Part shown: positions 11,528 to 37,105 of the stretch, piece by piece
Layout of the letters: each line of letters starts with the position of its first letter
How positions within the stretch are numbered: position 1 is the stretch's first letter
Source of the DNA: a candidate division WWE3 bacterium
Lineage (GTDB): Bacteria > Patescibacteriota > WWE3 > UBA101185 > UBA10185
Length of the DNA: 64,000 nucleotides
Assembly: GCA_012798115.1 (NCBI GenBank)
Contig: JAAZNV010000009.1
Location: forward strand, 10,156 to 74,155
Direction of reading: 5' to 3'
Position numbers and translations under genes: made by a program
Notes under the pieces: model-generated
What the model saw: only the letters and a program-made list of their open reading frames with translations
What the model was told of the DNA's origin: nothing
Databases searched by the model: none

Positions 11528-13375
11528 ATGATTAAAAAACTAACTGCAAAAACCCAAGAACTAAATCCAAAATTACCTCAATACAGTAATTCATTTTCAA
11601 AATGCGTAATCATCAAACCAGAGACACAAGAGTTGCTATTAAAAAAAGGCACTGTATACAGTGTGTTTGATGTATCAGGAGAATCTAATTTTGATACAGA
11701 GCTAGTAATTAAAGTGATAAATGATGTCATAAATAACCTCTACTTCCAATCAGAGAGTATATCTCCAATACAATCAATGGAAAAAGCTATTGTAGAAACC
11801 AAAGAAAAAGTTCTTCAACTATCCAACGATACATTAACTTCCAACCCGCAGAGCATTAACTTAAACATGATAACTGCAGTTTTATGGGGAAGCGTCTTGT
11901 ACATAATAAAATTTGGAGGTGCTAAAGGATATCTAATGAAAAACGGGGAAATATCCCCCTTAGAGATGATATCGGAAGGAAACTTCTCTACTGCTTCAAA
12001 GGTTGTTGATGAAGACGAAGTACTAATATTAGCTACAGAACATTTTGAGAGATCATTTCCCCCAGAAAGACTCTTAGCAACAAGCATTGGTGAAGGAGAC
12101 TTAGATCCCAATCAAGCATGTCTTCTCATGAGACTGATCATAGATACTACATTTTCAGATAATGAAGTGGTTGACTTTGGTTTGGGTGATGCAGTTTCAA
12201 AGAATAAAAACAGGGTAAGAGTAGAAAAACTTACAAGTATTATCGAAGATGCTTCAAGATGGATATTAAAATCTATTAAAAAAGTATGTGGAGTATTTGT
12301 TGCATTAGGAAAACTTTTAGCGGATGCTATTTCAAAAGTACTCCCGAGAAGGAAAGCTGTACTCTTAACAAGAAGTATAAGTCAATTATCAGGAAAAGGT
12401 GGAACAAAAACAAAAAGCTGGTTGCCTTTAAGCTTAATGTCAATATCTCTTGCTTTTCTGGTGTTTTTTATCTTAAGATCTACTGTACTTAAAAGCACCA
12501 ACAAGGAAAATATGGAAAGAAAAAATACAGGACAACAAACAGTTGAAACCAGTACAAAAGAAGTTGTAAATACAGAAACTGAAGACAAGTCAAAAGATGA
12601 GCAATATAAAATTAAACGAGTATCTCCGGAAGTATTTTATGACTTGAAAATTACGGATCAATCAGTAGAACCAAGTGAAATTGAAATAGTTGGAGACAAA
12701 GTTGTTATTGTAGATAAAATTACTGGGAAAATATATGTATCAGATATCTCAACTCCAAACTTTAAGCTTGGGGTAAATACGTTCCCTGGCATTAAATCAC
12801 TAGCATCTTCAGAAGACCTGTTGTCCTTTAATGATAATGAAGGCTACAAGACCTACAGTATTAAAAACTCTACCGTAATAAGCTCATATAAAGTAGAAGG
12901 TTTATCACTAACATTCCCATATGCAGGTTTTATATACTCAGTATCTTCAGATATTTTATCCAAGAATACAGAAAAAGATGGGAAACTAGATGGAGTAGTT
13001 TGGGCCCAAAGCCCAGATTTTGTAGATGCTAAGTCGATGTCAATTGCATACAGCATTTATATATTGAAGAAAGATGGAAACCTTGTTAATTATTCAGGCG
13101 GGTCTAAAACTAGCTTTGCCATTAACGGCCTTGAAAAACCTCTCTCCGATCCTTCAAAGGTTAGCACGAATATTGATTTTGAATACATTTACATAGCAGA
13201 TAAAGGAAATGAAGCTATAGTGGTTATTGATAACAAAGGAAATGTAGTAAAACAGTACAAGTATGAGGATAGTAGTACATGGAGTGATATTAAGAGCATT
13301 GCTATATCTTCGGATGAAAAGACCATCTTTGTTTTAAACTCAAGCAAAATATATAAACTAAATATAGAAAACTAA
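11528..13375 (+). CDS. Bitopic protein: N-terminal degenerate PP2C/SpoIIE-like phosphatase-like domain, one TM, C-terminal extracytoplasmic beta-propeller-like domain (tentative)
   Basis: The N-terminal region (VFDVSGES...ITAVLWGSVLYIIKFGGAKGYLMKNGE...DEDEVLILATEHF) follows the PP2C block pattern. TM is WLPLSLMSISLAFLVFFIL. C-terminal repeats resemble propeller blades (IYVSD, IYIADKGNEAIVVIDNKGNVV). Confidence 0.3.
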   Translation: MIKKLTAKTQELNPKLPQYSNSFSKCVIIKPETQELLLKKGTVYSVFDVSGESNFDTELVIKVINDVINNLYFQSESISPIQSMEKAIVETKEKVLQLSNDTLTSNPQSINLNMITAVLWGSVLYIIKFGGAKGYLMKNGEISPLEMISEGNFSTASKVVDEDEVLILATEHFERSFPPERLLATSIGEGDLDPNQACLLMRLIIDTTFSDNEVVDFGLGDAVSKNKNRVRVEKLTSIIEDASRWILKSIKKVCGVFVALGKLLADAISKVLPRRKAVLLTRSISQLSGKGGTKTKSWLPLSLMSISLAFLVFFILRSTVLKSTNKENMERKNTGQQTVETSTKEVVNTETEDKSKDEQYKIKRVSPEVFYDLKITDQSVEPSEIEIVGDKVVIVDKITGKIYVSDISTPNFKLGVNTFPGIKSLASSEDLLSFNDNEGYKTYSIKNSTVISSYKVEGLSLTFPYAGFIYSVSSDILSKNTEKDGKLDGVVWAQSPDFVDAKSMSIAYSIYILKKDGNLVNYSGGSKTSFAINGLEKPLSDPSKVSTNIDFEYIYIADKGNEAIVVIDNKGNVVKQYKYEDSSTWSDIKSIAISSDEKTIFVLNSSKIYKLNIEN

Positions 13376-20283: not shown

Positions 20284-21591
20284 TTATTGAATAGATAATC
20301 CAATGATGATCCAAAACATAAGAAGGGTTTGATGCATAGTAAAGAAATAATGATCCAAACTACACAATAGAATTATTTGACTAAATGAAATTAAAAATAC
20401 ATAAAAGTAACTTGAATTCACTAATTTCTTGGAAACAAAAAGAAGAAACAGGATGAAAAACACAAAGGAAAATATACCACTTTCTGCTGCTACTAAAGCA
20501 AAAACATTATGTACCGGCTGAGTAAACCTAATGTCTTTGGATTTGAGCATATAGTCATCAATATGTACAGCCAAATTGTTTAAACCTACTCCAAACAATG
20601 GATATTCTTTAAATATTTTATAAGAAGAGGAAAGTAAACTAGATCTCCTATATAAAGAGGGGTGTGTAGACCTTGATATACATGGGAAAAGAGGAACAAC
20701 AAGCATACTTAAGGAAAAAAGAAGAGTTAGCAATAAGATTTTTATTTTCTTCTTGTGGTTACTAAAATATTTTAATTCTTCAGATGTATCAAACGTAGAC
20801 GGTAGTAAAAGGAAGAAATGAACAATTAGACCAAATAAAAACACCAACCATGATGAGTAGCTAAATGTACAGAATAAAGCTGATAGACCAATTATAAAAG
20901 AATATATATAAAATCTGTTTCTTTTAAGAAATGAAAATATTAGTATCAAAGATACCGTTAAGAAACCACCAAATGTATTAGGATGTCTAAATAATCCATA
21001 GGAAGGTATTACTAATTTTCCAAGTAAAGATTCTTTAGCAATTCCCCAAGTAGATGCAGTGTAAGGTTGCTCACCAAAAAATAAGTAATTGTTGAAAATA
21101 GAACCTTTGTTTAAATATTGAAGAACACCTAATATACTCACAAGAAAGACAGATATGGATAAAGCATCTAAAAACTTAAAGAAAAAATATTCAACTTTGA
21201 TTTCAACAAATGTATATAAAAATATGCAGAAATAAAGAAATAATCTAAACCAAAAATATATGGAAGGAATAAACCTAGAAGAAGAAAGAACAGAAAACAA
21301 CGTAGAAAAAACAAAAAGAAGAGAGAATTGTATTTCTTTCCTTGCTAGTAAATCTTTCCAGTTTATCTTCTTAATATCTCCGCTAAAGAGCCATAATATA
21401 ACTATTAAAAAAGCTAATATATCTTGAATATATACAGTAGGAATTAAATAATCTATGAGGACCCCTCCAAAGTACGAGCTAGAAACTAAAAAATGTTTTC
21501 CTAAGTTTAAAGGAATAAGAAAAACTAATACTAGGAAAAGTTTTTGAGATAAAGATAACAAATTTATTTTAGGTATTTTCATATACTTCAA
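20284..21591 (-). CDS. Polytopic (10 or more TM) membrane protein, O-antigen ligase/Wzy-like (tentative)
   Basis: Highly hydrophobic F/L-rich protein with many TM helices and one larger loop; architecture only. Confidence 0.3.
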   Translation of the reverse strand: MKYMKIPKINLLSLSQKLFLVLVFLIPLNLGKHFLVSSSYFGGVLIDYLIPTVYIQDILAFLIVILWLFSGDIKKINWKDLLARKEIQFSLLFVFSTLFSVLSSSRFIPSIYFWFRLFLYFCIFLYTFVEIKVEYFFFKFLDALSISVFLVSILGVLQYLNKGSIFNNYLFFGEQPYTASTWGIAKESLLGKLVIPSYGLFRHPNTFGGFLTVSLILIFSFLKRNRFYIYSFIIGLSALFCTFSYSSWLVFLFGLIVHFFLLLPSTFDTSEELKYFSNHKKKIKILLLTLLFSLSMLVVPLFPCISRSTHPSLYRRSSLLSSSYKIFKEYPLFGVGLNNLAVHIDDYMLKSKDIRFTQPVHNVFALVAAESGIFSFVFFILFLLFVSKKLVNSSYFYVFLISFSQIILLCSLDHYFFTMHQTLLMFWIIIGLSIQ

Positions 21592-22011
21592 GATATAGTG
21601 GTTCTTATTTACGATTTAACAGTGGGCAATGAACTATTTAATAAAGAGATAATTTATATTTATAATATAGCATTAATTTCTTACTATTAAATGTTTGTTT
21701 TCCACATTGGCATTCAATATATTTGAGTATATATAATACGTAGTACTAGATATAGGAGGTGTGGATATGTGCATTAACTGATTAATTGCTCTTGCTTAAA
21801 CTTATACGTAAATCAAGCATTGAAGACAACTTTTTTTGTTATTAATCCAACTAATAGTCACAACTAAACACCTAATTTCCTTTAGCTACCTTCTGTAACA
21901 TCTGTTGATAAAGCTATGTTTAATGTGCAAAACATTGTGGATAAATACCTTAGTTTATCAACACTTGTGATGCGGCGTTAACTTTCCCACATCTTAGTTT
22001 ATTTGCATACA
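21592..22011. promoter_or_regulatory. Candidate chromosomal replication origin (oriC): AT-rich spacer with multiple DnaA boxes downstream of dnaA
   Basis: Perfect TTATCCACA (as TGTGGATAA) at 21936-21944. 1-mismatch boxes at 21903-21911, 21955-21963, 21760-21768 and 21698-21706. Very AT-rich stretch 21641-21695 as a possible unwinding element. The largest non-coding gap in the window. Confidence 0.5.
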
Positions 22012-23415
22012 TTAGTTGTTAAATATGATTTGTTTAACATTTACTATATCTTGAGTAGTTTTTCCTGTTTGAGCCATTTCAGCTTGAATTTTTCCTACCC
22101 CATGCATAACAGTAGTATGGTCTCTTCCTCCTAGGAATTCTCCAATTGTCATAAATGGCATGTCTGTAATTTCTTTCATTAAGTACATAGCAACTTGTCT
22201 TGGTATCACAAGCTCTTTATTTCTCCTTTTTCCTTTTAAGTCTTGGGCTTTTACAGAATAATAAAGGCAAACTGCTTTTAATATTTCATTAACATTGACG
22301 TTTTTCACTGCCTTTTCTCTTATTGTTTGACCAAGGGCTTTTGCTGCTAGATCAACGTTTAATTCCAAACCATTTGCTTTAGCATATGTAACTGCTTGTA
22401 AATAAGCTCCTTCTAGCTCTCTAATGTTTGAGTCAACTTTTTCTGCTATGTAGTTTATGACCTCATTTGGTACAAAATCCTTATTTTCATCTCTTTTTGC
22501 TCGTAGTATTGCTGCTCTCATTTCCATGTCTGGGTTTTGAATATCTGCAATTATTCCACTAGAAAACCTTGATGTTATTCTTTCTTCTAAATTAGTAAAA
22601 TCTTTTGGTGGCCTATCCGATGTAATAACAATTTGTTTCCCAGCCATGTACAAAGTATTAAACGTGTGAAAAAACTCTTCTTGAGTTGCTTCTCTCCCGA
22701 TAATGAACTGAACATCGTCTATTAGAAGAACATCTGCTTTTCTAAACTTTTCTCTAAATTGATTAGTAGTATATTGACCTTTTCCTTTTCCACTTTGTAT
22801 TGCTTCAATAAGCTCGTTAGTGAAGGCCTCTCCAGTTGTGTAAACAACTCTTACTCCTGGTTTTGATTCTATTACCTTATTTCCTATAGCTTGAATTAAA
22901 TGAGTTTTTCCAAGCCCAACTCTTGAATAAATGAAAACAGGATTGTATAACTCACCTGGTTTTTCAGCTACAGCAGTTGCTATTGCATATGCAAGGTTAT
23001 TGTTTTTTCCTATGATGTAGTTTTCAAATGTAAATTTAGAACTAAGATTAGACTTCTGCCTCTTTTCTTCCACCACAACACTTGGGTCTCTTTGTGATGA
23101 AAACAATGGTCCTAATTCGCCTTTTCCTTCCTTATCCATCCTACCATTCTTATCTGTGCTAACTTTTAGCTTAGTTTTTAAGTCTCTTCCAGCAGTATTT
23201 CTGATTGCTTTCTCTACGATATCTAGATACTTTTTTTCTAGATTTTTCTTAACGAAATCATCCTCACATGTTATTACAACTAAATTATCGTTTAAAGATT
23301 CTGCTTGAGTGCGAGCAATAACTGATTTGTATACCATGGGAGATATTTCTATCTCCACTTGCCCAAGAACCGTTTTCCAGAACCCTTTTAAGCTGTCAAA
23401 AGACTCAATATTCAT
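22012..23415 (-). CDS. dnaA: Chromosomal replication initiator DnaA
   Basis: Walker A GLGKTHL, AAA+ core, C-terminal DNA-binding helix-turn-helix (KELVIPRQVAMYLMKEITD...TIGEFLGGRDHTTVMHG). Confidence 0.95.
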   Translation of the reverse strand: MNIESFDSLKGFWKTVLGQVEIEISPMVYKSVIARTQAESLNDNLVVITCEDDFVKKNLEKKYLDIVEKAIRNTAGRDLKTKLKVSTDKNGRMDKEGKGELGPLFSSQRDPSVVVEEKRQKSNLSSKFTFENYIIGKNNNLAYAIATAVAEKPGELYNPVFIYSRVGLGKTHLIQAIGNKVIESKPGVRVVYTTGEAFTNELIEAIQSGKGKGQYTTNQFREKFRKADVLLIDDVQFIIGREATQEEFFHTFNTLYMAGKQIVITSDRPPKDFTNLEERITSRFSSGIIADIQNPDMEMRAAILRAKRDENKDFVPNEVINYIAEKVDSNIRELEGAYLQAVTYAKANGLELNVDLAAKALGQTIREKAVKNVNVNEILKAVCLYYSVKAQDLKGKRRNKELVIPRQVAMYLMKEITDMPFMTIGEFLGGRDHTTVMHGVGKIQAEMAQTGKTTQDIVNVKQIIFNN

Positions 23416-23462
23416 AGTTTATATGGGAAGGAACTACTTAACGTTAGTGTAAGATATATTAG

Positions 23463-23471
23463 TTATCCACA
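23463..23471 (+). promoter_or_regulatory. Perfect DnaA box (TTATCCACA) in the dnaA upstream region; likely autoregulatory site or oriC element
   Basis: Exact 9-mer consensus 45 nt upstream of the dnaA start. A second weaker box (AATCCACA on the reverse strand) lies at 23484-23491. Confidence 0.5.
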
Positions 23472-23505
23472 ATTATCAAGCAATGTGGATTGTTAAATTA
23501 GATTC

Positions 23506-24327
23506 TTAGAGTGCTTTTTCTTGATCCCTTTGAGCTTTATTACCTTTTTTCCTCATAAGCTCTGTGTAGTCTTCTTCTAAGTTCCCAGGTAGTGGAGAAA
23601 AATCTTCAAAATGATAAATTATTCCTTTTCTAAACAAATATTTAGGAGTCTTTCTATCCCAAATAACTATAGTGTCCACCTTTGCTCTTATAGATGATTC
23701 AACGCCCACAGGAGAATCTTCAAAAGCTAAGACTTCCTTAGGCTTTAGTTTAAAGGATTTTAGTGCCTTTCTGTATATTTCAGGACTTGGTTTTATTCTT
23801 TTTACTTCATCACCGCATATTATTAAGTCAAAAGCATCTTTAATATCAAGTTTATTAATTACAACATCTGCAATAGATCTTTTAGTGTTTGTTAAAAGGG
23901 CTAGTTTACAAGACTTCTTTTCTTTTAATTCATAAATCAAATCCCAAAATCCTTCTGTAGGTTCTATTTTTGAATTGTTTATTATGTTTATATATGCTTT
24001 CTCTGTTAAATCAATTAATTCATCTAGTGGTTCCTTTACTGCATGACCATACGTGGCTTTTATTACTTTCCATGATTCTGAAATAGGGTAGCCATATAAT
24101 TTGTAATCCCTTGCGTTTATATAGCTTACTTCAATATCATCCAATACTTTTTGAATAGCATTAGTCATCAATTCTTCTGTTTCTTTTACTACTGTTCCAT
24201 CTAAGTCAAAAAATACTGCTTTTTTTCCTTCAAATAATTTTTTATACATACTGTTTCTTAATTTTATATTTAAATGCTTATTATTTCTAGTGATTTTAAT
24301 ACTTACGTATTTGAGATATAACATCAT
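23506..24327 (-). CDS. HAD-superfamily hydrolase (phosphatase/beta-phosphoglucomutase-like)
   Basis: Motif I FFDLDGTVV plus downstream HAD motifs (LLTNT..., ...FEDS). Confidence 0.7.
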   Translation of the reverse strand: MMLYLKYVSIKITRNNKHLNIKLRNSMYKKLFEGKKAVFFDLDGTVVKETEELMTNAIQKVLDDIEVSYINARDYKLYGYPISESWKVIKATYGHAVKEPLDELIDLTEKAYINIINNSKIEPTEGFWDLIYELKEKKSCKLALLTNTKRSIADVVINKLDIKDAFDLIICGDEVKRIKPSPEIYRKALKSFKLKPKEVLAFEDSPVGVESSIRAKVDTIVIWDRKTPKYLFRKGIIYHFEDFSPLPGNLEEDYTELMRKKGNKAQRDQEKAL

Positions 24328-24346
24328 TTTTTGTTAGTATTTTAGT

Positions 24347-24571
24347 ATGGAAGAAAAAGAGTTTGAAGAAAGTAAAAATATTAAATTTAAATGTCCTAAT
24401 TGTGGCTCTCTGCAGAGGGATGATGTAGTCTTTTTATGCAATAAATGCAATCAATCGGAAATGTTGTATAAGGATGGTGTTTATATGTGTCCTTCGTGCT
24501 TAAAGCCTGGAGAAAATTTCGAATGCTTGAGATGTGGCTCTAAAGAAGTAGTGATGAAGATAAAAGAGTAG
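24347..24571 (+). CDS. Small zinc-ribbon protein (four CxxC pairs)
   Basis: CPNCGS...CNKCNQ...CPSC...CLRCGS within 74 aa. Confidence 0.45.
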   Translation: MEEKEFEESKNIKFKCPNCGSLQRDDVVFLCNKCNQSEMLYKDGVYMCPSCLKPGENFECLRCGSKEVVMKIKE

Positions 24572-25015
24572 TTATTCTATTCCTTTATCATCGTAGTACA
24601 TTCTTAAAATATAAGCAGCTGCTAAATGGTCGTTTGTCTTTCTATGCTTCTCTGAAATTCCTAAATCTAATGCTTCCTCAAACGCTCTTGCTGAAGACCC
24701 ATACTCATTTTGAGTCTCAACAGGCCTTTTTGTGTTGGTTTTTAATATTTTTGCAAATCTTCTTATTTCAATAGACTCTGCAGTATCTTTTCCTTCCATT
24801 GTCAATGGCAGACCTAGAATAATGAGCTCTACTTTATTCTCAATAACTACCCTGTTTATTCTTATAAGAGCGTTGTTAGTGTTTTTAGCTGAAATTACTT
24901 CTAAAGGAGTAACTAACCCATTTCTCCCAAGTGCCAAGCCAATATTTGCTCTACCATAATCCACTCCAAGTATAGTAGCAGAATCGTATTTAATCTTTTT
25001 ACTATTCATTATCAT
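24572..25015 (-). CDS. ruvX: Putative pre-16S rRNA nuclease / Holliday-junction resolvase-like YqgF
   Basis: ILGVDYGRANIGLALG...ELIILGLP...AAAYILRMYYD; RuvX/YqgF blocks. Overlaps the upstream gene by 4 nt. Confidence 0.75.
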   Translation of the reverse strand: MIMNSKKIKYDSATILGVDYGRANIGLALGRNGLVTPLEVISAKNTNNALIRINRVVIENKVELIILGLPLTMEGKDTAESIEIRRFAKILKTNTKRPVETQNEYGSSARAFEEALDLGISEKHRKTNDHLAAAYILRMYYDDKGIE

Positions 25016-26565
25016 TCCTTCTCTATAGTAATTTGTATTCTGCTTATATCTTTGGGTATGTTTCTAAAAAATGGCACTGCTGGACTAAGACGAAACTCAT
25101 ATGAGTTAACGTTCTTAATTGATCCTAATAGACTCTGTGCTTCTGCTGCAGATTTTCCTCTAAGTTGGTTTTTAATATCTTCCTCATTAATATTAGGAAC
25201 AATAAAAGTTTTAAGAGTAACTTGAATGTCTGCTTCTTGTGAAGTTAAAACACTACTGGTAGAGCTTCCAAGTACCTCTACTTTAACTTCTCTGTCTTGT
25301 TCTGATAGTGCAAACCCTTCTGGTATTACATCTTTAACATATTCATCTATAAACTTATTTAGTTCACTTTCCATGTATGCTAAACCCTCTCCACTTACAG
25401 TTTGGGTGAGAGATATTTTTTCTGCTTCATCCCCAATATTTTTGGTAAAACTATCTTTAATTATTTGAACTTGAGTTGAGCCTGCAACTAGCTTTTGTCC
25501 AATACCCAACTTACTCTTGATGTCCTCCTCAGCCTTTTTTGTACTAACCAGTTTCAGCTCAGTAGATATATTGTTTCTATCATCTGATGTAACTATTTTT
25601 ACTTCCTCACTCTTTCCACCATCTATATCACTTTTGGTCTTTGCAGCAAGTTCACTCTTTTTATATCCAGAAACTTCAAGTGATTTTCCATCATCTATAT
25701 TAAAAGATTCCCCAACACTAGAAGCAATGATGTCCACAGTTGCTTCTCCTGCAATATTGACCTCAGGATTAGAAGAATTTTCTGTGCTAGCTGGAATATC
25801 AACATCGTCTTTAAGATAATAATTCAAGTCTGTTGATTTTCCTTCGTAAACAACCTTATCTCCTTTATCAAGACTTATTTCTTTGGATGTTTTATTGTAC
25901 AAGGTTATCTCTCCTTCAGCCTTTTCCCCAACTGTTTTTGTGCCAGTAGTATCCTTTTCTAAGGTTGACTCTATATTCGTTGCTATAGTAGTTCCTCTAA
26001 GAACCTTGTTTTGTACGCTTGTTGAAGCACTATTTTTAACTTTTATAGTTACACTTTTTGTTAATGCTTGTGAGTGAACAGATATTTTTACACTTGCTTT
26101 TGGGGCCTTTAAACCATAGAAAATGAAACTAGCAAGTAAAGTAAGTAATATAAGAACTGGAGTGAGCACCTTCTTCTTTCCACTTGTTAGTTTTCTTATA
26201 AAATTTAGCGGTGCAATATTAATCTTTTTAGATTTGAAAATATTCATGGGAAGAGTGATCACTTTTTGTTTTGATTGCTTTGCTGTAGCTTCTATTAATG
26301 TCTGGTCTTCTTCTATGTATGGTTGTTCGGGACCTCCTCCTATAACTGACGAAAGGAGGCTATTTCCTATTTCATCATCAGTTGCAAAATCAATACTTTT
26401 TTCCATCTTATCAGCTTCATACTGAATAAGCTTAATATTTAATGAGTTTTCAAATAAGACAGATTCTTTTGGGATGTTTACCTCGATATTTAAATCAGTA
26501 ATGCTTTTTATCTTGCTTATTGCGGTAACAACATCATCGTTGGGTTGTAAATATAGTTTAATCAT
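25012..26565 (-). CDS. Bitopic membrane protein: ~125-aa cytoplasmic N-domain, one TM, ~370-aa Ser/Thr/Lys/Glu-rich beta-rich extracytoplasmic domain; unknown function
   Basis: TM VLTPVLILLTLLASFIFYGL. No family recognised. Last-but-one gene of an operon with the actin-like and FtsK/HerA-like ATPase genes. Confidence 0.4.
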   Translation of the reverse strand: MIKLYLQPNDDVVTAISKIKSITDLNIEVNIPKESVLFENSLNIKLIQYEADKMEKSIDFATDDEIGNSLLSSVIGGGPEQPYIEEDQTLIEATAKQSKQKVITLPMNIFKSKKINIAPLNFIRKLTSGKKKVLTPVLILLTLLASFIFYGLKAPKASVKISVHSQALTKSVTIKVKNSASTSVQNKVLRGTTIATNIESTLEKDTTGTKTVGEKAEGEITLYNKTSKEISLDKGDKVVYEGKSTDLNYYLKDDVDIPASTENSSNPEVNIAGEATVDIIASSVGESFNIDDGKSLEVSGYKKSELAAKTKSDIDGGKSEEVKIVTSDDRNNISTELKLVSTKKAEEDIKSKLGIGQKLVAGSTQVQIIKDSFTKNIGDEAEKISLTQTVSGEGLAYMESELNKFIDEYVKDVIPEGFALSEQDREVKVEVLGSSTSSVLTSQEADIQVTLKTFIVPNINEEDIKNQLRGKSAAEAQSLLGSIKNVNSYEFRLSPAVPFFRNIPKDISRIQITIEKE

Positions 26566-26574
26566 ATATTTTAA

Positions 26575-27777
26575 CTAAATTCCTAGTATCTCCTTATAAA
26601 TAATAGACGCAGCTACTGTATACAACCAATCAGAACTTAATAACTCTCCTGTGGCATAAGATACTTTTGATAAATCAGATAAGGATAATTTGGCTATCTC
26701 TAGACTAGCTTTAAATGGAATTGTTTTAGTCCATGGTTCTTCTTTTAGAGCGTTTTCAATATCTGGTATTTCAGCTCCACATCCGGATAGAAATATTTTG
26801 TTTGAAAACATTTTTATTCCAGAAAAATCTTCAAATAGCAACTTAATTCCATCAATCCACAAGCTTGTTATTCCTTTCAAGCATTTCTCGACGGTTATCC
26901 TCTCACTTTCTGAAAGTTTTTCTTGGTTGTACATATTTAATACATTTTCAGCATCTTTTGGTGATAAACCCATGTTTAACCCCACTGCTTCTATGAAGTG
27001 TGTATGTCCAATATTTAGGGTTTTAGATGAAACTATGCCACCACCAAATACAACTCCTACATCAGTTGAGTCTTCTGCAATACTAATTAAGACAAAATCT
27101 AGAATGTTTTTTGGAGGGTTTTTAAACCATTCAACAACTGAATACATCTGAGATCCTAATGCAATTAATTCAAGGCCTGATTTTTTAATTATTCCTTGAA
27201 TGGATTTAACGTGAAAACTTGGAGCAAAAGAATTGTACACTGCAGCTTCAATTGTCTCCCCACGCTGGCCCTCAAGTATTGCTACATTTTGATTATCTAT
27301 TTTTAAATAAATGTCAGACGTTGTTATTGAATCTAGTTCTAAATCTGGATCTCCAGTGTTCTGAAGAACTTTGTTATGTGCTTGAATATATGAAGCTTCT
27401 GTAATTCTGGAGTAAAGTTCTTCCACCTCATCAGCCTTAATAGGATCTGTTGTTGCTCTTTTTAGTCTTACCGTTGTAGTAAGTCCTAGTGTAATTCCGC
27501 CATCAATAGCAATTATTGTTTTTCTTGTTTTATCCTCTAAATTTTCTGTTGCTTTACTAACAACCTCTTTTATTGCTTCGCTAACCCCTTCTTTATTAAT
27601 AACCATTCCATTCCTTACGTAACCTTTCTCTAGGTTCTTTTTTCCTGACCCAATTATTTTAAATAAATCCCCATCGAAAAAGAATGCAACACATCTAACA
27701 TCCTTAGCATTTACATTCAAAGATAAGAACTTATTTGTGTTGGTATCTACTTTTTCTAAAAAAGGCAGATTAAACAT
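26575..27777 (-). CDS. Actin-fold ATPase of the FtsA/PilM family
   Basis: N-terminal glycine-rich phosphate loop region and a GHTHFIEAVGLNMGLSPKDAENVL block resembling the FtsA/PilM GG...AE..K motif; 400 aa. No ftsZ nearby. Confidence 0.5.
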   Translation of the reverse strand: MFNLPFLEKVDTNTNKFLSLNVNAKDVRCVAFFFDGDLFKIIGSGKKNLEKGYVRNGMVINKEGVSEAIKEVVSKATENLEDKTRKTIIAIDGGITLGLTTTVRLKRATTDPIKADEVEELYSRITEASYIQAHNKVLQNTGDPDLELDSITTSDIYLKIDNQNVAILEGQRGETIEAAVYNSFAPSFHVKSIQGIIKKSGLELIALGSQMYSVVEWFKNPPKNILDFVLISIAEDSTDVGVVFGGGIVSSKTLNIGHTHFIEAVGLNMGLSPKDAENVLNMYNQEKLSESERITVEKCLKGITSLWIDGIKLLFEDFSGIKMFSNKIFLSGCGAEIPDIENALKEEPWTKTIPFKASLEIAKLSLSDLSKVSYATGELLSSDWLYTVAASIIYKEILGI

Positions 27778-27801
27778 TAGATTGATTATACAAATAGTAA
27801 G

Positions 27802-30210
27802 TTAAAACGGAAAGTTTGTTCGGTTTATGCTTGGTTCTTCTTGTGAGGCAGGTTCTTCTGAAAGTCTTCTGTTAATGAACTCTTCAACTTCTTGAACAGG
27901 AGTTCCATATTTTATTCTTGATAATTCTCTAATCTCGTCTGCTACCCTAGGATCTTTTTTGACAGAAGATAGGTCATTCCAATCTATCCATAAAGAAAAG
28001 GGTGGGGAAGGCTGCCCTCTTACTAAAAGCCTCATATAAGCATTTCCTGTTGGAAGATTGCTTAAATCTTGTTTTGTAAATGTTGGTGCAAACTGAGGTT
28101 CTAAAAATTCTGCATCTTCTACACCGACTCTAAAAGAACATATTGTTCCAACGTTTCCAAACACAGCTTCTTTTATATCTTCTTCAAGTTGTTGAATAAA
28201 CTGATGTGCTACAGTCAAATTAAGCTTGTATTTTCTAGCTTCTGAAAGGATAGTAGCAAAATCAGGTGTGGCAAAATTTTGAAACTCATCTACATACAAG
28301 AAGAAATTAGGAAAATCTCCATGAAGCTTGTGTCTTCTTAACGCTGATGCAAGTATTCTTGGGACGAACAATAATCCGATAAAGTTGGAGTTTTCTTCAC
28401 CAATTTTCCCTTTTGCAAGGTCCACCAAAAGTATTTTCTTCTCAGCCATTATTTGGTCAAAGTTGAATGAGGATTTAGGTTGTCCAATTATATTTCTCAT
28501 AGTTTTATCTGTTGTAATTCTGTCGAATTTAGACACAAAGTATCCCATTGTTTCGCCTTTCCTACTTGCTGTTGTTTTAGCCATCTCATCTGTCCAGTAT
28601 CTTCTAACAAGAGGATCAGTTAGCTTGTCTAAAAATTTCTTGGAGTAGCTCTCGTCAATAAATAATCTCAAAACATCTATCATTGTTGCTTCTGGATCAA
28701 CCATTGCAGTAAGCATCACATTTCTAATTGATCTCTCAAGAAGAGGGCCCATTATTCCTTGCTTGTTTGGATCATATAGTTTGTAGAGTAGGGCAATAAA
28801 TGCATTTATTATCATATTTTTTTCTTCATCAGTTTGAGCTTCAAGTAAGTTGAGTCCTAAAGGCCTTTCCGTATCTGCAGCATCAAACAAAATGACATCC
28901 TCTTTCCTTTCTGGGGGTATTTTTTGAAGTAGCTCGTCAATGTCTGTTCCATGGGGGTCAATAATTGCAACCCCTTCTCCTCTTTTAATATCTTGGAGTG
29001 CGCACCACATTAAGAATTGAGACTTTCCAGATCCTGTTTGTCCAACTATATACATATGTCTTGTTCTATCTTCGTCAAGCATATGAATTTCCTTTTCCAC
29101 TCCTCTAAATATACTTTTCCCTAAGAAGATTCCTTCATCTGGTAGCTCTACTGGAGCAGAGGATTTTCTAGCGATAAGCCACAAAATATTGGGTGTACCA
29201 ATGTCTTTGTTTGGAAAATGAAATACTGTAGCCATTTCTATATTGTTTAATACAGAAACGTTTGAGTATAACTGTATGCTAAGCATTGGAATGTTTATGT
29301 TTTTAATTCTTAATCTTCTGTATATGAAATCATTTACGTATTTTTTGGGGGATATTAAGAATCTTCTTACAAATCTGTTGTATGAAACATCTGTAAACTG
29401 TTCAAATGCCCCTACCATATTATGCATTTGAGAATCTGCAGTCATCTTATCACTTGCAACTGATACTATTCTTATTTTTATATAAAACCCTGGATTGGAT
29501 ATCTTGTTCTCAACTCCTTCAAGAAACTTTTCATCTATATTTATCTTCTTGTCTGGATTTGCTGCTTTTGCTCTAACATTAGATATAAATCTTCTACCTG
29601 CCATTCTCCAATCATCATCTGCAGGTTGGATTACGTACTGAACAGCAGTTACTTGATCCACCCTCATTTTACTCATAGCTGATGTTATAGGGCTTAAAGA
29701 ATCACTCTTTAAATCTTCATATTGTTTTATTGGATAGAAAGCAGGTCCTTTGAGCTTTAACTCTGTAATTCTAGTAAATTTTCCTCTATCCCATACTTCA
29801 TGTGGTTTTACTATATCTACTTGAGCAGCAGGGTACGCTGCATTTATTTGTTTTTCCACAAGAGATGCAATTTCATCAGGTGTTACGACGTAAAAAGCTA
29901 TTCCTTCTGCCTTAGAAACTATTTCAAAGGATATTCTATATTGCCCTGTAAATAATGCTTTCCAAAAACCTTTTTTAAACCCAATGAGGCTAGAAAACAT
30001 ATGTTCTGCGGCTTTTATTTCTATCTCATTGTCATTAGGTAAAAGAACTTGAAAAAACGTTAAGTTATATTGTGTTTGTTTCTCCTTTCTTTTCCTAAGC
30101 CATGAAGCAACTCCTAGAGTGATAAATGTCAATAAAAACACAGAAACTATCAAGTAAATAGAAATCCAAAATGTATTGTATAAAGTGTTATTTACTTCCA
30201 TGGGCAGCAA
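27802..30210 (-). CDS. FtsK/HerA-superfamily P-loop ATPase of the T4SS VirB4/VirD4 (TraC/TraG) type, N-terminal TM anchor
   Basis: One N-terminal TM. Walker A HMYIVGQTGSGKSQ followed by GEGVAIIDPHG. Walker B FLYVDEFQNF then SEARKYKLNLTVAHQ, matching the VirB4/VirD4 pattern DEF...aRKyg..l.l.tQ. Confidence 0.6.
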   Translation of the reverse strand: MLPMEVNNTLYNTFWISIYLIVSVFLLTFITLGVASWLRKRKEKQTQYNLTFFQVLLPNDNEIEIKAAEHMFSSLIGFKKGFWKALFTGQYRISFEIVSKAEGIAFYVVTPDEIASLVEKQINAAYPAAQVDIVKPHEVWDRGKFTRITELKLKGPAFYPIKQYEDLKSDSLSPITSAMSKMRVDQVTAVQYVIQPADDDWRMAGRRFISNVRAKAANPDKKINIDEKFLEGVENKISNPGFYIKIRIVSVASDKMTADSQMHNMVGAFEQFTDVSYNRFVRRFLISPKKYVNDFIYRRLRIKNINIPMLSIQLYSNVSVLNNIEMATVFHFPNKDIGTPNILWLIARKSSAPVELPDEGIFLGKSIFRGVEKEIHMLDEDRTRHMYIVGQTGSGKSQFLMWCALQDIKRGEGVAIIDPHGTDIDELLQKIPPERKEDVILFDAADTERPLGLNLLEAQTDEEKNMIINAFIALLYKLYDPNKQGIMGPLLERSIRNVMLTAMVDPEATMIDVLRLFIDESYSKKFLDKLTDPLVRRYWTDEMAKTTASRKGETMGYFVSKFDRITTDKTMRNIIGQPKSSFNFDQIMAEKKILLVDLAKGKIGEENSNFIGLLFVPRILASALRRHKLHGDFPNFFLYVDEFQNFATPDFATILSEARKYKLNLTVAHQFIQQLEEDIKEAVFGNVGTICSFRVGVEDAEFLEPQFAPTFTKQDLSNLPTGNAYMRLLVRGQPSPPFSLWIDWNDLSSVKKDPRVADEIRELSRIKYGTPVQEVEEFINRRLSEEPASQEEPSINRTNFPF

Positions 30211-30514
30211 ATCCTTTTAATGCTTCTTTTTCTTCTAGTGAAGCTAGGCTAGTAATTTTATCTGTTTTATCTAGCAGCTCCGTTTTTGTTTTTGGCTCTA
30301 ACTCTTCTGTTCCTATGAGCGATGAGATAGAATGATCCCCATTACTGTATTCTTGCTGGGGTACTTCTTCTTTTGCTATTGTTAGTACTGTGTCTGATTC
30401 TGCGCTACCTCCATCTTCTGGTATTATTCCAGAAACAAATTCTCGTGAAGCTGCTTGTTGTATGGAATCAGATTCTTCTTGTGGAACTTCACCAATAACA
30501 GGTAGTTTAATCAT
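30188..30514 (-). CDS. Small acidic, low-complexity protein; weakly supported
   Basis: 108 aa rich in E/S/T, overlapping the ATPase start by 23 nt. No motif. Confidence 0.25.
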   Translation of the reverse strand: MIKLPVIGEVPQEESDSIQQAASREFVSGIIPEDGGSAESDTVLTIAKEEVPQQEYSNGDHSISSLIGTEELEPKTKTELLDKTDKITSLASLEEKEALKGFAAHGSK

Positions 30515-30570
30515 AGAAATATTTTAGCATTAACAAGGAGAAAATTAACAATTTAACAATGTAGTGTAAA

Positions 30571-30975
30571 TTATCTTCTTTTAGTTCCTTTGAAATATCT
30601 CTTTCTTATCTTGTCTGCTTCATCTTCAACTGACTCTGAAAAATCTTGTATAGTGTCCATGATAGGACCTTTTTCTTTTTCAAATTCCTTCTTTGCCTTT
30701 TCTATTTTTTCTTTCGTTTCTTCGATCATTGGTTCTGTTTGTTCTTTAAGATCCTCGTACTTAACCTTTGCTTTTCCATACTCAACCTTAGCTTTCTCTG
30801 CATACTTCTTACCTTTATCTTCATATTCCTTTGCAATTTTCTTAACTTTCTTTCTTGTTTCTTCTCCTTTATCTGGAGCAAAAAGAACTCCAAATATAGT
30901 TCCAGCTATTGTTCCCCAAAACAACCCTTTGAAAAAAGAACCACCACTTCTACGATGATAATGCCTATCTGTCAT
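30571..30975 (-). CDS. YtxH-like membrane-anchored coiled-coil stress protein
   Basis: N-terminal TM (GLFWGTIAGTIFGVLFA) followed by a K/E-rich helix (KKYAEKAKVEYGKAKVKYEDLKEQ). Confidence 0.45.
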   Translation of the reverse strand: MTDRHYHRRSGGSFFKGLFWGTIAGTIFGVLFAPDKGEETRKKVKKIAKEYEDKGKKYAEKAKVEYGKAKVKYEDLKEQTEPMIEETKEKIEKAKKEFEKEKGPIMDTIQDFSESVEDEADKIRKRYFKGTKRR

Positions 30976-31257
30976 TTATATTTCCTCCTCATCATAATCA
31001 TCTTCGTCCTCAAAGGCCCCAACTATAGATCTGATGGTTTTTAAACCTTTTGATATTCCTCCAGCAATTCCCATAACTGTGGTCATAGGTATAGCTAGAG
31101 ATGAGGTAATTTTTTTACCTATCTTGGATATTTCTTTAACGTTTTCTGCAGTTTCCTTTATATCTTTTAAGACAAATATCAAATACAACGAAACAGCTGT
31201 TAAAGAAACAATAAAAACTATTAAGGAAATTGTTAAAATTATTTGTAGTGTTTCCAT
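30976..31257 (-). CDS. DUF948-like small membrane protein
   Basis: N-terminal TM plus an amphipathic helix and an acidic tail; frequently paired with YtxH-like genes. Confidence 0.4.
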   Translation of the reverse strand: METLQIILTISLIVFIVSLTAVSLYLIFVLKDIKETAENVKEISKIGKKITSSLAIPMTTVMGIAGGISKGLKTIRSIVGAFEDEDDYDEEEI

Positions 31258-31360
31258 AGGCAGTTTAATAAGTTAAGTATAATCCTGCTTTTAAATTATA
31301 GTCAATGTTTTGATATACTCTTAAGAGTTTAGAAATTTAAAATTGGAAGGGGTGTTTTAA

Positions 31361-31600
31361 ATGGACGATAATTTAACACAAGCAATACCAACAGACCAAG
31401 CGCAAGATACAGGACTACCACCTCAAGATGGTAATTCTGCAATCCCAGCAATGGATTCAACAGAAGAAAAAGTAGAAGAACCTACATTAGAAGAAGCTCC
31501 TATAACAGAGGCTCCTTTGGATGAAGGTTTAGAAGAGCCTGAAGAAGAGTCCTTTGAGGATGAAATAGTTGATGATGATTCTGGTGATAGCAAGCTTTAA
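31361..31600 (+). CDS. Small highly acidic, probably disordered protein
   Basis: 79 aa, about 35% D/E. SD-like GGAAGGGG 8 nt upstream of the ATG. Confidence 0.35.
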   Translation: MDDNLTQAIPTDQAQDTGLPPQDGNSAIPAMDSTEEKVEEPTLEEAPITEAPLDEGLEEPEEESFEDEIVDDDSGDSKL

Positions 31601-31634
31601 GTTCTGGTTTTTGTTTAACAAGTCTTGTTAAAGA

Positions 31635-31661
31635 AAGAAGGGCGCTTGAGGCGCCCTTCTT
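31635..31661 (-). terminator. Rho-independent terminator of dnaK (GC-rich 11-bp stem, 5-nt loop)
   Basis: AAGAAGGGCGC-ttgag-GCGCCCTTCTT. On the minus strand it is followed by TTCTTTCTTT. Lies 20 nt downstream of the dnaK stop. Confidence 0.7.
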
Positions 31662-31681
31662 ACGTGAACCTTAAGTAACTC

Positions 31682-33565
31682 TTACTCAACTACTTCGCCT
31701 TCAACAGGTTCATCTTTCTTATCTTTATTACCGTCTTCTGGATCTTTTTGCTCATTAGAATTGCCTTGCTCTCCTTGTTTATACATGTATTGTCCAATCT
31801 TTTGCATTGATAGAGAAAGTTCTTGAGTTTTTTGCTTTAAAGTTTCTGCTGATGCAGTTTGAAGATTGTCTTTAATATCTTTTACTTTATCTTCAATTTC
31901 CTTTTTAACATCTGCTGGTATTTTATCTCCAGCTTCTCTCAGTGATTTTTCTGCTGTATAACACAAACCATCTGCTTGATTTCTTGCTTCAACTTCTTCT
32001 TTTCTCTTTTTATCTTCTTCAGCATGAGATTCTGATTCTTTTACCATCTTTTCAACTTCTTCTTTTGATAATCCAGTTCCTCCTTGGATTGTTATCTTTT
32101 GTTCCTTTCCTGATGCTTTATCTTTTGCAGTAACATTTAAGATACCATTGGCATCAATATCAAAAGTAACTTCAACTTGAGGCATACCTCTTGGAGCTGG
32201 AGGAATTCCATCAAGAATGAATCTTCCAAGAGATTTATTGTCGGAAGCCATTTCTCTTTCTCCCTGCAATACATTTATTTCAACACTTGTTTGATTATCA
32301 GCAGCAGTAGAAAACACTTGGCTTTTTTGTGTTGGAATAGTCGTATTTCTGTTTATAAGAGGAGTGGAGACACCCCCAAGGGTTTCTATACCTAATGTCA
32401 AGGGAGTTACATCGAGTAAAAGTACATCTTTTACATCTCCTGCAAGTACGCCTCCTTGAATTGCTGCACCTACAGCAACAACTTCGTCAGGGTTAATGCT
32501 TTTATTTGGTTCTTTACCAAAAAAGTCTTTAACAATTTGATTAACCTTAGGCATTCTCGTCATTCCTCCAACTAAAACTACTTCGTCTATCTGGTTCTTT
32601 GAAAGACCTGAGTCTTTTAAGGCATTTTCAATAGGAGATATTGTCTTTTGGATTAAGTCATCCACCAGTTGTTCTAGTTTAGATCTGGAGAGTTTGATAT
32701 CTAAATGTTTAGGTCCGCTCTTGTCTGCTGTGATAAACGGGATATTAATTTCAGTTTCCATTGTTGAAGAAAGTTCTATCTTAGCTTTTTCTGCTGCATC
32801 CTTAAGTCTTTGCATTGCTTGTCTATCACTAGACAAGTCAATTCCGTTTTCTTTCTTAAATTCCTCAAGAAGGTAGTTTATTACTCTTTGATCAAAATCA
32901 TCCCCACCAAGATATGTATCTCCATTTGTAGCTTTTACTTCAAAGACGCCATCTCCAATCTCAAGTACTGATACATCAAAAGTTCCACCCCCAAGATCAT
33001 ATACGACAATCTTCTCATTCTTTTTCTTATCAAGACCATACGCTAAGGATGAAGCTGTGGGCTCGTTAATGATTCTTTTGACTTCAAATCCAGCTATCTG
33101 GCCTGCTTCCTTTGTAGCTGTTCTTTGGGAATCATTAAAGTATGCAGGAACTGTGATTATTGCTTCTGTTATTTTTTGGCCTAAGAAAGTTTCAGCATCA
33201 GATTTCATTTTAGCCAATATCTTTGCAGATACTTCTTGAGGTGTGTAAGTTTTTCCTTCTATTTCTACACATGCAAGACCGTTTTGTCCTTCAACTATCT
33301 CATAAGGATAGTTCTTCTTTATTTTTTGAACCTCAGGGTCTGAATACTTTCTACCCATTAATCTTTTGATTGAAAAGATAGTGTTTTTTGGGTTTACCAC
33401 TTGTTGTCTTTTTGCTGGAACACCAACTATGTTTTGGTCTGGCACTACTATTGAAGGAGTAGTGTTTCCACCTTCCACGTTTGGTATTACTTTTGTGGTG
33501 CCACCCTCCATTACAGCCATACAGCTGTTAGTTGTTCCTAAGTCTATTCCTAATATTTTTGACAT
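31682..33565 (-). CDS. dnaK: Chaperone DnaK (Hsp70)
   Basis: [18 protein letters not shown]...; full Hsp70 signatures. Confidence 0.97.
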
Positions 33566-33579
33566 ATTTTCCTCCTTAA

Positions 33580-34074
33580 TTATTTACCAACTACTACTTT
33601 GGCTGGTCTTAATAATTTTCCATTTAATAAGTAACCATTACTTAGTACTTTTAAAACTTTGTCTTTTTCACCTTCACCAGTCTCAACAGCTTCCATTTCA
33701 TTTGAATTAAAATCCTTTCCCAATGCTTTTATCTCTTCAACGCCCATAAATGAAAGTGTTTGCTTAAAATCTTTTAATGTTAGTTCTAAACCTTTATCTT
33801 TAATGTGTTCTCCAATTTTTTCTAAGTTATCCAAAAATGGAAGGATATCTTCTATTGTTTGTTTTTTTATATAAAAAGCTAGTTGTTCCTTATCTTCTAA
33901 TACTCTTTTTTCTAAATTTTTGTAATCAGCTAGTGCTCTTTTCCAATTATTCTCCAAGTCTTTCACTTTTCCTTCTAAATGTTTAATGTGTTTTTGGCAC
34001 TTTTCTAGCTCTTCAATTTTTTTGTCTTTCACTTCTTTCATATTTGAATCCAGGCAGTGAGTATCTATTACCAA
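33580..34074 (-). CDS. grpE: Nucleotide exchange factor GrpE
   Basis: Coiled-coil N-terminus and C-terminal GrpE beta-domain (…[14 protein letters not shown]). Positioned between hrcA and dnaK. Confidence 0.8.
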
Positions 34075-34790: not shown

Positions 34791-34791
34791 A

Positions 34792-34827
34792 TTATCAGTA
34801 ATATACCATGAGTGCTAAGAGTGTCAA
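34792..34827 (-). promoter_or_regulatory. hrcA-grpE-dnaK promoter (-35 TTGACA, 16-nt spacer, -10 TATATT) giving an essentially leaderless hrcA mRNA, overlapped by a CIRCE-like inverted repeat
   Basis: Minus-strand reading: ggggTTGACActcttagcactcatggTATATTactgataatATG. The element TTAGCACTC-N9-TACTGATAA (34792-34818) has a perfect left CIRCE half-site and 9-nt spacer, but only 6 of 9 matches in the right half. Confidence 0.5.
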
Positions 34828-34945
34828 CCCCTATTTGCAAAACATTATGCGGTATCCGATCAGATTGTATTGCTGACTTTAAAATGAGGGACTGCATTAG
34901 GGAGAAAATACTAGAAAAAGACAAAGTGAAGAAGTAATAAAAGAT

Positions 34946-36767: not shown

Positions 36768-36834
36768 AAAATCCTAAAAAGGAGCTTATATTAAAATAAA
36801 AGTGCGAAGTTATTTATTTCTCCGCACTTAAATG

Positions 36835-37104: not shown

Positions 37105-37105
37105 A

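Follow-up and report, generated by a model that had tools for sequence, protein, structure and literature searches.

The locus analysed here raises the question of where chromosome replication starts in a lineage whose dnaA gene is not followed by dnaN. Box clusters and skews were analysed over 64 kb, hereafter called the window, out of a contig that measures 285 kb or more. In it, dnaA encodes a complete DnaA, box-binding domain included, and a spacer separates it from a gene for a membrane protein.

22012 to 23415, minus strand: dnaA, 467 aa (Pfam DnaA_N, Bac_DnaA at 1e-64, Bac_DnaA_C at 6e-28)
21592 to 22011, no strand assigned: very probable oriC, in the intergenic DNA that separates dnaA from the Wzy_C gene (box enrichment, seven-species alignment, AT3 breakpoint)
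20284 to 21591, minus strand: Wzy_C (O-antigen-ligase-like) polytopic membrane protein, at the usual dnaN position (Pfam Wzy_C, 4e-14)

Judged from its sequence, this spacer downstream of dnaA is very likely the chromosomal replication origin of WWE3-related Patescibacteria (candidate phyla radiation), because DnaA boxes are enriched in it, an architecture of boxes, trios and AT-rich DNA is conserved, and strand composition switches there with origin polarity. The initial annotation had proposed an oriC candidate beside dnaA, and these three lines of evidence bear it out. Full-text searches of a paper library on WWE3 dnaA, and on WWE3 GC skew and origin of replication, returned nothing. For a WWE3-related candidate-phyla lineage, the locus offers an origin model at the level of sequence, comprising boxes, trios, a candidate unwinding tract and a probable autoregulatory site. 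We use the term "WWE3-related" since some of the related assemblies are labelled "Saccharibacteria", while the nearest named DnaA homologues belong to candidate division WWE3.

All of the boxes previously claimed for the spacer, one perfect and four with one mismatch, were found. At the density of the remaining window, 420 bp should contain 0.24 boxes with at most one mismatch; the spacer has five (Poisson P about 5e-6), which confirms the proposed enrichment over background. The spacer is also the only 420-bp segment of the 64 kb with at least four boxes, and none of 5,000 dinucleotide shuffles of its sequence reached three, making this a statistically enriched DnaA-box cluster. Together with boxes carrying two mismatches, the boxes are arranged as follows.

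21903 to 21991, no strand assigned: distal DnaA-box cluster, adjoining the dnaA stop codon (box scan; alignment)
21903-21911, minus strand: one-mismatch box TTATCAACA, distal cluster
21924-21932, minus strand: two-mismatch box TTTTGCACA, distal cluster
21936-21944, minus strand: perfect box TTATCCACA, distal cluster
21955-21963, plus strand: one-mismatch box TTATCAACA, distal cluster
21983-21991, plus strand: two-mismatch box TTTCCCACA, distal cluster
21760 to 21776, minus strand: tandem proximal boxes, TAATGCACA (21776-21768) abutting the 8-mer TATCCACA (21767-21760) (box scan)
21698-21706, plus strand: one-mismatch box TTTTCCACA, facing the tandem boxes from the far side of the trios and an AT-rich tract (box scan)

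In the tandem pair, the box at 21768 has two mismatches, and the 8-mer is part of ATATCCACA, a one-mismatch box at 21760 (minus strand). The inverted pair TGTGGATAA-N10-TTATCCACA and the boxes after it align in all seven species compared, and the tandem 9-mer and 8-mer boxes are conserved in relatives (the seven-species alignment and loci L095 and L096). The facing box reads TTGTGG(A/T)AA without exception in the seven aligned species and is present in L096; L095 has TGGGGATAA at this position. Such a cluster could be purely regulatory, titrating DnaA or controlling transcription, both of dnaA and of the envelope operon downstream; replication would then start elsewhere. DnaA indeed doubles as a transcription factor, and in L096 the facing box precedes the murT start by 17 nt. 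However, the 64 kb holds no second box cluster, and the boxes of the spacer belong to a larger conserved module.

This module corresponds to the basal unwinding system, for which the published rule (Richardson 2016/2019, Pelliciari 2021) calls for a box with at most two mismatches and an optional second with at most four, both in fixed orientation, a spacer of at most 16 bp with a GC-rich gap between the first box and the first trio, and at least three consecutive central-A trinucleotides (3'-NAN-5', ideally GAT). The two-mismatch TAATGCACA abutting TATCCACA has the same orientation as in B. subtilis, and the 8-mer box plus the tetranucleotide CCTC gives a spacer of 12 bp.

21756 to 21759, minus strand: GC-rich gap CCTC, 4 bp, from boxes to trios (total spacer 12 bp, the length listed for Bacillus, Listeria and Staphylococcus; Pelliciari 2021)
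21729 to 21755, plus strand: DnaA-trio array, in dnaA sense CTA TAT CTA GTA CTA CGT ATT ATA TAT (seven-species alignment; trio reading)
21707 to 21740, no strand assigned: conserved AT-rich tract adjoining the trios, best candidate for the unwinding element (DUE) (duplex stability at the 99.6-99.9th percentile of the window)
21629 to 21690, no strand assigned: second, very AT-rich tract, holding the least stable 27-mer of the window

On the plus strand the array reads 3'-GAT ATA GAT CAT GAT GCA TAA TAT ATA-5'. The longest strict central-A run in this array is three (GAT CAT GAT), which equals the minimum of the published rule, and the strict runs of relatives reach five to six (GAT AAT GAT CAT GAT in L001, GAT GAT GAT TAT GAT GAA in L003); L095 has a poor trio array. 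The pattern of a box end, four nucleotides and CTA-N3-CTA-N3-CTA, which was chosen post hoc, occurs once in the window where 0.02 occurrences are expected. The layout recurs in eight related genomes. Conservation of the boxes, the trios, the AT tract and the facing box extends over seven species with 74-90% DnaA identity, and at 63-66% these elements are still recognisable. A mirror-image trio array beside the facing box at 21698-21706, which would have made a symmetric second unwinding module, was also sought by eye, and no frame with a consistent central base was found.

An AT-rich element that should melt easily, by computed stability, lies beside the boxes. The initial annotation had described an AT-rich spacer with a possible unwinding tract; the spacer does include the 27-mer of lowest nearest-neighbour stability in the window (21642-21669), but overall it is only modestly richer in AT than the window (71% versus 66%). 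The unwinding tract proposed there was probably the stretch near 21640-21690, which relatives with shorter spacers do not share: L002 and L005 lack the entire 21629-21690 tract. The conserved candidate is the trio-side tract at 21707-21740. Within the latter, the segment 21712-21739 beside the trios ranks at the 99.87th percentile of computed instability, and the sequence TTATTTTATATAC...ATATTGA is conserved in seven species. The 21629-21690 tract carries promoter-like matches on both strands, an overlap that would suit a purely regulatory cluster, and probably serves the Wzy_C gene as promoter or leader, possibly also extending the DUE. Promoter assignments at this locus are weak, because promoter-like sites number 8 against 10.2 expected and are thus not above chance. 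Nothing points to a concealed gene for an RNA or a small protein, as Rfam gave no match between 20 and 25 kb at E<=1 and only three short ORFs (30-43 aa) touch the spacer; no intrinsic terminator-like site was found after dnaA.

Strand composition provides the third line of evidence. The cumulative GC-skew curve suggested as a check has, in its raw form, no minimum at the spacer over the window, which taken alone would favor an origin elsewhere and a regulatory role for the boxes. The raw curve misses the switch because most genes on the dnaA side are head-on and the coding-strand effect (0.159 over all codon positions, five times the replication effect of 0.031) masks the replication effect, and we therefore rejected raw cumulative GC skew as an origin test. 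Strand-corrected third-position skews, in contrast, do switch here. AT3 on the plus strand is +0.17/+0.15 (plus/minus-strand genes) to the left of the spacer and -0.15/-0.16 to the right, corresponding to a side effect of -0.142 +/- 0.013 and an orientation effect of 0.011 +/- 0.013, and its best breakpoint in the 64-kb window lies at 21-22 kb. GC3 has a side effect of +0.097 +/- 0.019, with G exceeding C on the plus strand to the right, which is the polarity of an origin; its breakpoint is less sharp, with a best fit at 19-20 kb. Within the 64 kb examined the skews thus change sign in the sense expected of an origin. AT3 also flips across the spacer between same-strand genes in all eight relatives (pooled +0.16 before and -0.11 after).

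The box, trio and AT-rich elements, their enrichment and conservation, and the long-term switch of strand composition with origin polarity at the spacer are thus directly established. A strand-independent AT3/GC3 switch exactly at the spacer, in the window and eight relatives, together with conservation of the full box, GC-gap, trio and AT-rich module, makes it very improbable that the cluster is only regulatory and the origin elsewhere. For genome curation, these data carry a warning: raw GC skew here is dominated by the coding strand and would mislead origin finders, while third-position AT skew pinpoints the origin.

Taking the spacer as the origin, we considered whether the other side of dnaA belongs to it as well. 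The initial annotation had placed a perfect DnaA box 45 nt upstream of the dnaA start; the box is present, at a distance of 47 nt.

23416 to 23505, no strand assigned: dnaA upstream region, 90 bp, with two boxes around a promoter-like TTGCTT-N16-TAATAT (box scan; promoter by eye), a probable autoregulatory site
23463-23471, plus strand (opposite to dnaA): perfect DnaA box, 47 nt from the dnaA ATG
23484-23492, minus strand: two-mismatch box CAATCCACA (box scan)

A promoter scan gave a weaker match overlapping the element seen by eye. A perfect box occupies the same place in six of six related species, frequently accompanied by another box at a distance of about 12 bp. This conservation, and the precedent of B. 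subtilis, C. difficile and H. pylori, whose bipartite origins have dnaA in the middle, could mean that 23416-23505 is a second subregion looping to the downstream spacer for unwinding. We consider this unlikely. A bipartite origin should have at least three boxes upstream of dnaA too, and these 90 bp contain only two, with 0 and 2 mismatches, whereas B. subtilis oriC1 has 13 in 620 bp. The two boxes flank a promoter-like element, so that autoregulation alone explains them, and in B. subtilis the minimal module of proximal boxes and trios suffices for unwinding. The upstream boxes are therefore read here as a probable autoregulatory site.

The same locus departs from the common arrangement in its gene order. 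As the initial annotation stated, the gene following dnaA and the spacer encodes a polytopic membrane protein, identified by its Pfam match as Wzy_C, and dnaN is found neither next to dnaA nor elsewhere in the 64-kb window. A DnaN profile built from 43 dnaN genes (46-row alignment A3) matched neither the window nor any of 11 related loci, even with the cutoff relaxed to E<=10. By comparison, dnaN adjoins dnaA in 43 of 56 unrelated metagenomic dnaA loci, which came from a single metagenome scan with the DnaA alignment; their DnaA genes (36-48% identity) are too distant to trace this lineage. The order dnaA, box-rich spacer, Wzy_C, SBP and TsaD is kept in six related species with DnaA 74-90% identical, and recurs with murT-gatD inserted in WWE3 relatives at 63-66% DnaA identity. 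In total, ten of ten related loci (63-90% DnaA identity) are without dnaN, all having the order RuvX-HAD-dnaA-spacer-(murT-gatD)-Wzy_C-SBP-TsaD, with Wzy_C likewise as the neighbor.

Rearrangement at the origin had been offered as the cause of the broken linkage, and a recent event splitting an ancestral dnaA-dnaN pair in this genome would fit both the prevalence of linkage among unrelated loci and the fact that this clade has no origin-adjacent murT-gatD, unlike its WWE3 relatives, which indicates some local change. The ten related loci share both the absence of dnaN and the flanking order, though, and the third-position skews to the left and right of the spacer have reached full equilibrium with the present direction of replication, so that a recent, local event is unsupported and has very little probability. 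Because the dnaN-less order is common to relatives down to 63% DnaA identity, the unlinking of dnaA and dnaN is ancient and lineage-wide, with cell-envelope genes following the origin instead. The missing dnaN is thus a stable lineage trait and should not be mistaken for misassembly or recent rearrangement.

Co-directional gene bias is near-universal. Gene orientation around this origin is the reverse of what is usual, an observation that was counted against the oriC reading. About 66% of coding bases in the origin-proximal 64 kb are head-on to replication (lagging strand), and a conserved block extending at least 16.7 kb from the origin, with dnaA, HAD, ruvX, ftsA-like, virB4-like, dnaK-grpE-hrcA, lepA and murJ, is transcribed against the departing fork. 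Should the head-on excess hold genome-wide, the WWE3-related lineage would lack or even invert the co-directional bias, which we regard as improbable; if true, it would provide a natural test case for tolerance of replication-transcription conflict in very slow-growing, reduced bacteria.

By analogy with the basal unwinding system of B. subtilis, we infer DnaA binding, an unwinding site and autoregulation at the dnaA/oriC locus. DnaA would bind the distal cluster beside its own stop codon and the tandem boxes at 21776-21760. ATP-DnaA would then oligomerise from the tandem pair, over the 4-bp GC gap, onto the trios (3'-GAT-5' type, plus strand, 21755-21729). The oligomer would stretch and open the adjoining AT-rich tract at 21740-21707, where the helicase would be loaded, and forks would depart both ways. 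Most likely, DnaA also represses its own promoter through the two boxes upstream of dnaA.

The origin next to dnaA is well-formed and conventional, and belongs to a known kind of oriC. Origin-proximal type IV secretion genes have been described in several Patescibacteria classes (PMC12102498, Microb Genom 2025), and the VirB4-like and T4SS pilin genes found here less than 15 kb from dnaA agree with that arrangement. That study reports an abundance of DnaN as well as DnaA near virB4 in most classes, Paceibacteria and Microgenomatia among them, whereas in the WWE3-related lineage dnaN is not near dnaA. In Clostridioides difficile, oriC2 (the dnaA-dnaN spacer) has the same succession of boxes, GC cluster, trio array and DUE in the same orientation to dnaA, and its trios CACCTACTACTATTACTACTATGA (CACC TAC TAC TAT TAC TAC TAT) have the same form as those of the window; there, oriC1 is also required for melting in vitro and dnaN lies downstream. 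The bipartite oriC of Helicobacter pylori, with dnaA between oriC1 and oriC2, likewise carries an unwinding module downstream of dnaA, made up of boxes, GC gap and GAT trios and followed, so far as is known, by a gene other than dnaN. It differs in its atypical topology-sensitive boxes and clear upstream subregion, where our locus has canonical TTATCCACA boxes and only two upstream boxes.

The likeness to incC of B. subtilis oriC (the basal unwinding system of DnaA-boxes 6/7, GC gap, DnaA-trios and AT-rich 27-mer) extends to its position directly downstream of dnaA, the 9-mer box abutting an 8-mer, the 4-bp GC-rich gap, CTA-type trios in dnaA sense leading into AT-rich DNA, and a distal box cluster upstream of the unwinding module. 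In contrast to B. subtilis, where dnaN follows, our origin is followed by the Wzy_C membrane protein, the better box of the tandem pair is the downstream one, the module is faced across the AT-rich tract by an additional conserved box, and dnaA lacks a large box cluster on its upstream side. The module itself, TAATGCACA, TATCCACA, CCTC and CTATATCTAGTACTA..., matches the B. subtilis form of TTATCCACA, AATCCACA, GGCC and CTACTATTACTT... (Pelliciari 2021, Tables S1/S2), both with a 12-bp spacer. The locus adds to the evidence for an ancient, widespread box-plus-trio unwinding module.

The 420-bp spacer downstream of dnaA is predicted from its sequence, with high confidence, to be a standard DnaA-dependent origin with a box-plus-trio unwinding module in the ancestral position. 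The window forms part of a 285.6-kb metagenomic contig; the nearest named homologues of its DnaA come from candidate division WWE3 (61-66% identity), and closer relatives are labeled Patescibacteria or, inconsistently, Saccharibacteria. Six related species with DnaA proteins 74-90% identical share the order FtsA-like / 517-aa protein / RuvX / HAD / dnaA / spacer / Wzy_C / solute-binding protein / TsaD, and each carries a box cluster in its spacer (330-430 bp).

Features of the dnaA locus and candidate origin (boxes, gap and trios in dnaA sense unless stated)
Upstream of dnaA: 90-bp spacer, then a HAD hydrolase gene; perfect DnaA box at 23463-23471 with a two-mismatch partner at 23484-23492
22012-23415 (-): dnaA, encoding a complete DnaA with N-terminal domain, AAA+ domain (1e-64) and box-binding C-terminal domain (6e-28)
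21592-22011: intergenic spacer, 420 bp, downstream of dnaA
21991-21903 (-): distal group of five boxes directly past the dnaA stop codon, including the inverted pair TGT(T/G)GATAA-N10-TTATCCACA
Between distal and tandem boxes: poorly conserved stretch of about 125 bp
21776-21760 (-): tandem boxes TAATGCACA-TATCCACA, directly followed by the 4-bp gap CCTC
21755-21729 (-): DnaA-trio triplets CTA TAT CTA GTA CTA CGT ATT ATA TAT
Up to 21707: AT-rich tract adjoining the trios
21706-21698: facing box TGTGGAAAA, oriented opposite to the tandem boxes (+ strand reading TTTTCCACA)
21690-21629: second, very AT-rich tract, ahead of the Wzy_C start
20284-21591 (-): next gene past the spacer, Wzy_C (O-antigen-ligase-like) polytopic protein, 435 aa

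The perfect box (TTATCCACA) and four one-mismatch boxes that the initial annotation had read in the spacer were recovered, together with three two-mismatch boxes. The five boxes with at most one mismatch are a clear enrichment, given an expectation of 0.24 boxes per 420 bp at the rate of the rest of the window (Poisson P ~5e-6). No other 420-bp stretch in the 64 kb held at least four boxes, and 5000 dinucleotide-shuffled versions of the spacer never reached three. When seven spacers were aligned, the conserved islands corresponded exactly to the distal and tandem boxes, the trios, the TTATTTTATATA tract beside them and the facing box TTGTGGAAAA. The trio consensus over these spacers was CTA CTA NTA CTA C, the relatives having better trios than the window (5-6 consecutive triplets with central A). 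A WWE3 relative with 63% DnaA identity (L096) carries the module TTCCCCACA-AATCCACA-GACT-CTA TAC GTA CTA CTT CTT ATT, with AT-rich DNA and then TTGTGGAAAA beyond it, while another at 66% (L095) has clear boxes and poor trios. By computed duplex stability, the trio-adjoining tract ranks in the least stable 0.13% of the window, and within the 64 kb no 27-mer is less stable than one in the second AT-rich tract.

The facing box (21698-21706, +) is directed back towards the tandem boxes, from which the trios and AT-rich tract separate it. Seven species share it as an invariant element and L096 has it too, 17 nt ahead of the murT start; a search by eye for a mirror-image trio array beside it gave none. 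This box may mark the limit of the DnaA filament, or it may repress the operon downstream.

The raw GC-skew curve, proposed as a check in the initial annotation, shows no dip at the spacer, which at face value is the outcome that the initial annotation had named as refuting an origin there. The dip is missing because genes are strongly G-rich on their coding strand and those right of the spacer lie mostly on the - strand; raw GC skew in the window follows the coding strand, which masks the origin. We therefore rely on a regression of per-gene + strand skews against gene orientation and side of the spacer.

Regression effects on + strand skew (GC3 and AT3, skews at third codon positions)
GC skew, all positions: orientation 0.159 +/- 0.013; side 0.031 +/- 0.013
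GC3: orientation 0.108 +/- 0.019; side +0.097 +/- 0.019
AT3: orientation 0.011 +/- 0.013; side -0.142 +/- 0.013

Left of the spacer, mean AT3 was +0.17 in plus-strand and +0.15 in minus-strand genes; on the right it was -0.15 and -0.16, respectively. A scan of all possible breakpoints placed the AT3 residual minimum at 21-22 kb and a broader GC3 minimum at 19-20 kb, and both raw and third-position AT skew change sign sharply at ~22 kb. Since the + strand right of the spacer has G>C and T>A, the polarity is that of an origin, not a terminus. In each of the eight relatives whose sequence covers both flanks, AT3 of same-strand genes likewise flips across the spacer (pooled AT3, +0.16 before and -0.11 after; pooled GC3, -0.02 to +0.07). 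The third-position skews, in the window and its relatives, are long-term evidence that forks diverge from the spacer.

The perfect box noted earlier upstream of dnaA is real and was measured 47 nt from the ATG; a perfect box occurs there in each of the six related species. The sequence of this 90-bp region in dnaA sense is CAATCCACA-TTGCTT-N16-TAATAT. It contains a putative promoter, read by eye, whose 16-bp spacer encloses the perfect box (TGTGGATAA); a consensus scan gave an overlapping weaker match. DnaA bound to this box would occlude the promoter and autoregulate dnaA, a box within a promoter being the usual autoregulatory arrangement. An alternative but unlikely reading is that these boxes are a second, small subregion of a bipartite origin; two boxes fall short of the clusters found in such origins.

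As initially annotated, dnaN does not follow dnaA, and no window gene has a DNA_pol3_beta domain. In a baseline sample of 56 unrelated dnaA loci from metagenomes, all extending far enough downstream, the next gene was dnaN in 43. A profile from a 46-row alignment of these downstream proteins (A3; 43 dnaN and three unrelated) matched nothing, even at E<=10, in six-frame ORFs of the window and eleven related loci. WWE3 relatives (63-66% DnaA identity) have the order dnaA / ~300-bp spacer / murT / gatD / Wzy_C / SBP / TsaD. The dnaA-dnaN linkage is thus missing throughout the lineage, so the departure from the common order is old, and the rearrangement suggested initially finds no support as a recent event. 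The only more recent change is the absence of murT-gatD, a peptidoglycan amidation pair, at this position in the window's clade: murT (Mur_ligase_M + MurT_C) and gatD (GATase_3) lie between origin and Wzy_C in L095 (7711-9620) and L096 (7722-9646), not at window 21592.

On the dnaA side, all genes over 16.7 kb (22012-38770, -) run towards the origin, head-on to the departing fork: dnaA, HAD, ruvX, the 517-aa protein, ftsA-like, virB4-like, dnaK, grpE, hrcA, lepA and murJ. Only ~34% of coding bases in the window (19.2 of 57.2 kb) are co-directional, and in 8/8 relatives every large ORF in the available 2.8-10 kb upstream of dnaA is on the dnaA strand. Type IV secretion genes near dnaA have been reported in Patescibacteria (PMC12102498), a pattern that the window fits, with type IV secretion-like genes on both sides of the origin:

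2769-6362: 1197-aa protein with C-terminal CHAP domain
6849-7400, 7645-7986, 8018-8815: three T4SS_pilin-domain proteins
27802-30210: VirB4-like DUF8128/DUF87/TraG-D_C protein

Elsewhere in the window, a zinc-ribbon-like ORF of 74 aa (24347-24571, +; four CxxC motifs, no Pfam match) lies between ruvX and the HAD gene, on the opposite strand, and is annotated in all same-strain contigs; in WWE3 relatives, an ORF of 83-84 aa instead occupies the opposite strand between HAD and dnaA. Five proteins of 400-615 aa had no Pfam family at E<=0.001 (55-1323, +; 1348-2703, -; 11528-13375, +; 25012-26565, -; 26575-27777, -), and two of them, of 400 and 517 aa, are conserved in every relative as part of the block upstream of dnaA. 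Between the RmuC and 963-aa AddB/UvrD-like helicase genes, separated by only 340 bp in the window (60711-61051), a contig of another strain (L014, 11100-16154) has ~5.5 kb of extra genes (FemAB, DegT aminotransferase, Mur ligase, hydrolase, CxxCxxCC protein).

No description of this lineage's origin was found; full-text searches for work on WWE3 dnaA, or on WWE3 GC skew and replication origin, gave no papers. The locus offers a clean example of an origin and a caution on naive GC skew, as origin finders based on cumulative GC skew could put this genome's origin in the wrong place. Its module is built like that of B. subtilis, which reads on the same strand TTATCCACA-AATCCACA-GGCC-CTA CTA TTA CTT CTA CTA (Pelliciari et al. 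2021, supplementary tables); both pair a 9-mer box with an 8-mer box and have the 12-bp spacer common to Bacillus, Listeria and Staphylococcus (Pelliciari et al. 2021). Trio form and orientation are also those of C. difficile oriC2, where CACC TAC TAC TAT TAC TAC TAT precedes the experimentally mapped unwinding region. Three features set the window apart from model origins without altering the category: a neighbour gene other than dnaN, a conserved box that faces the module from the far side of the unwinding tract, and, on the dnaA side, a long block of head-on genes.
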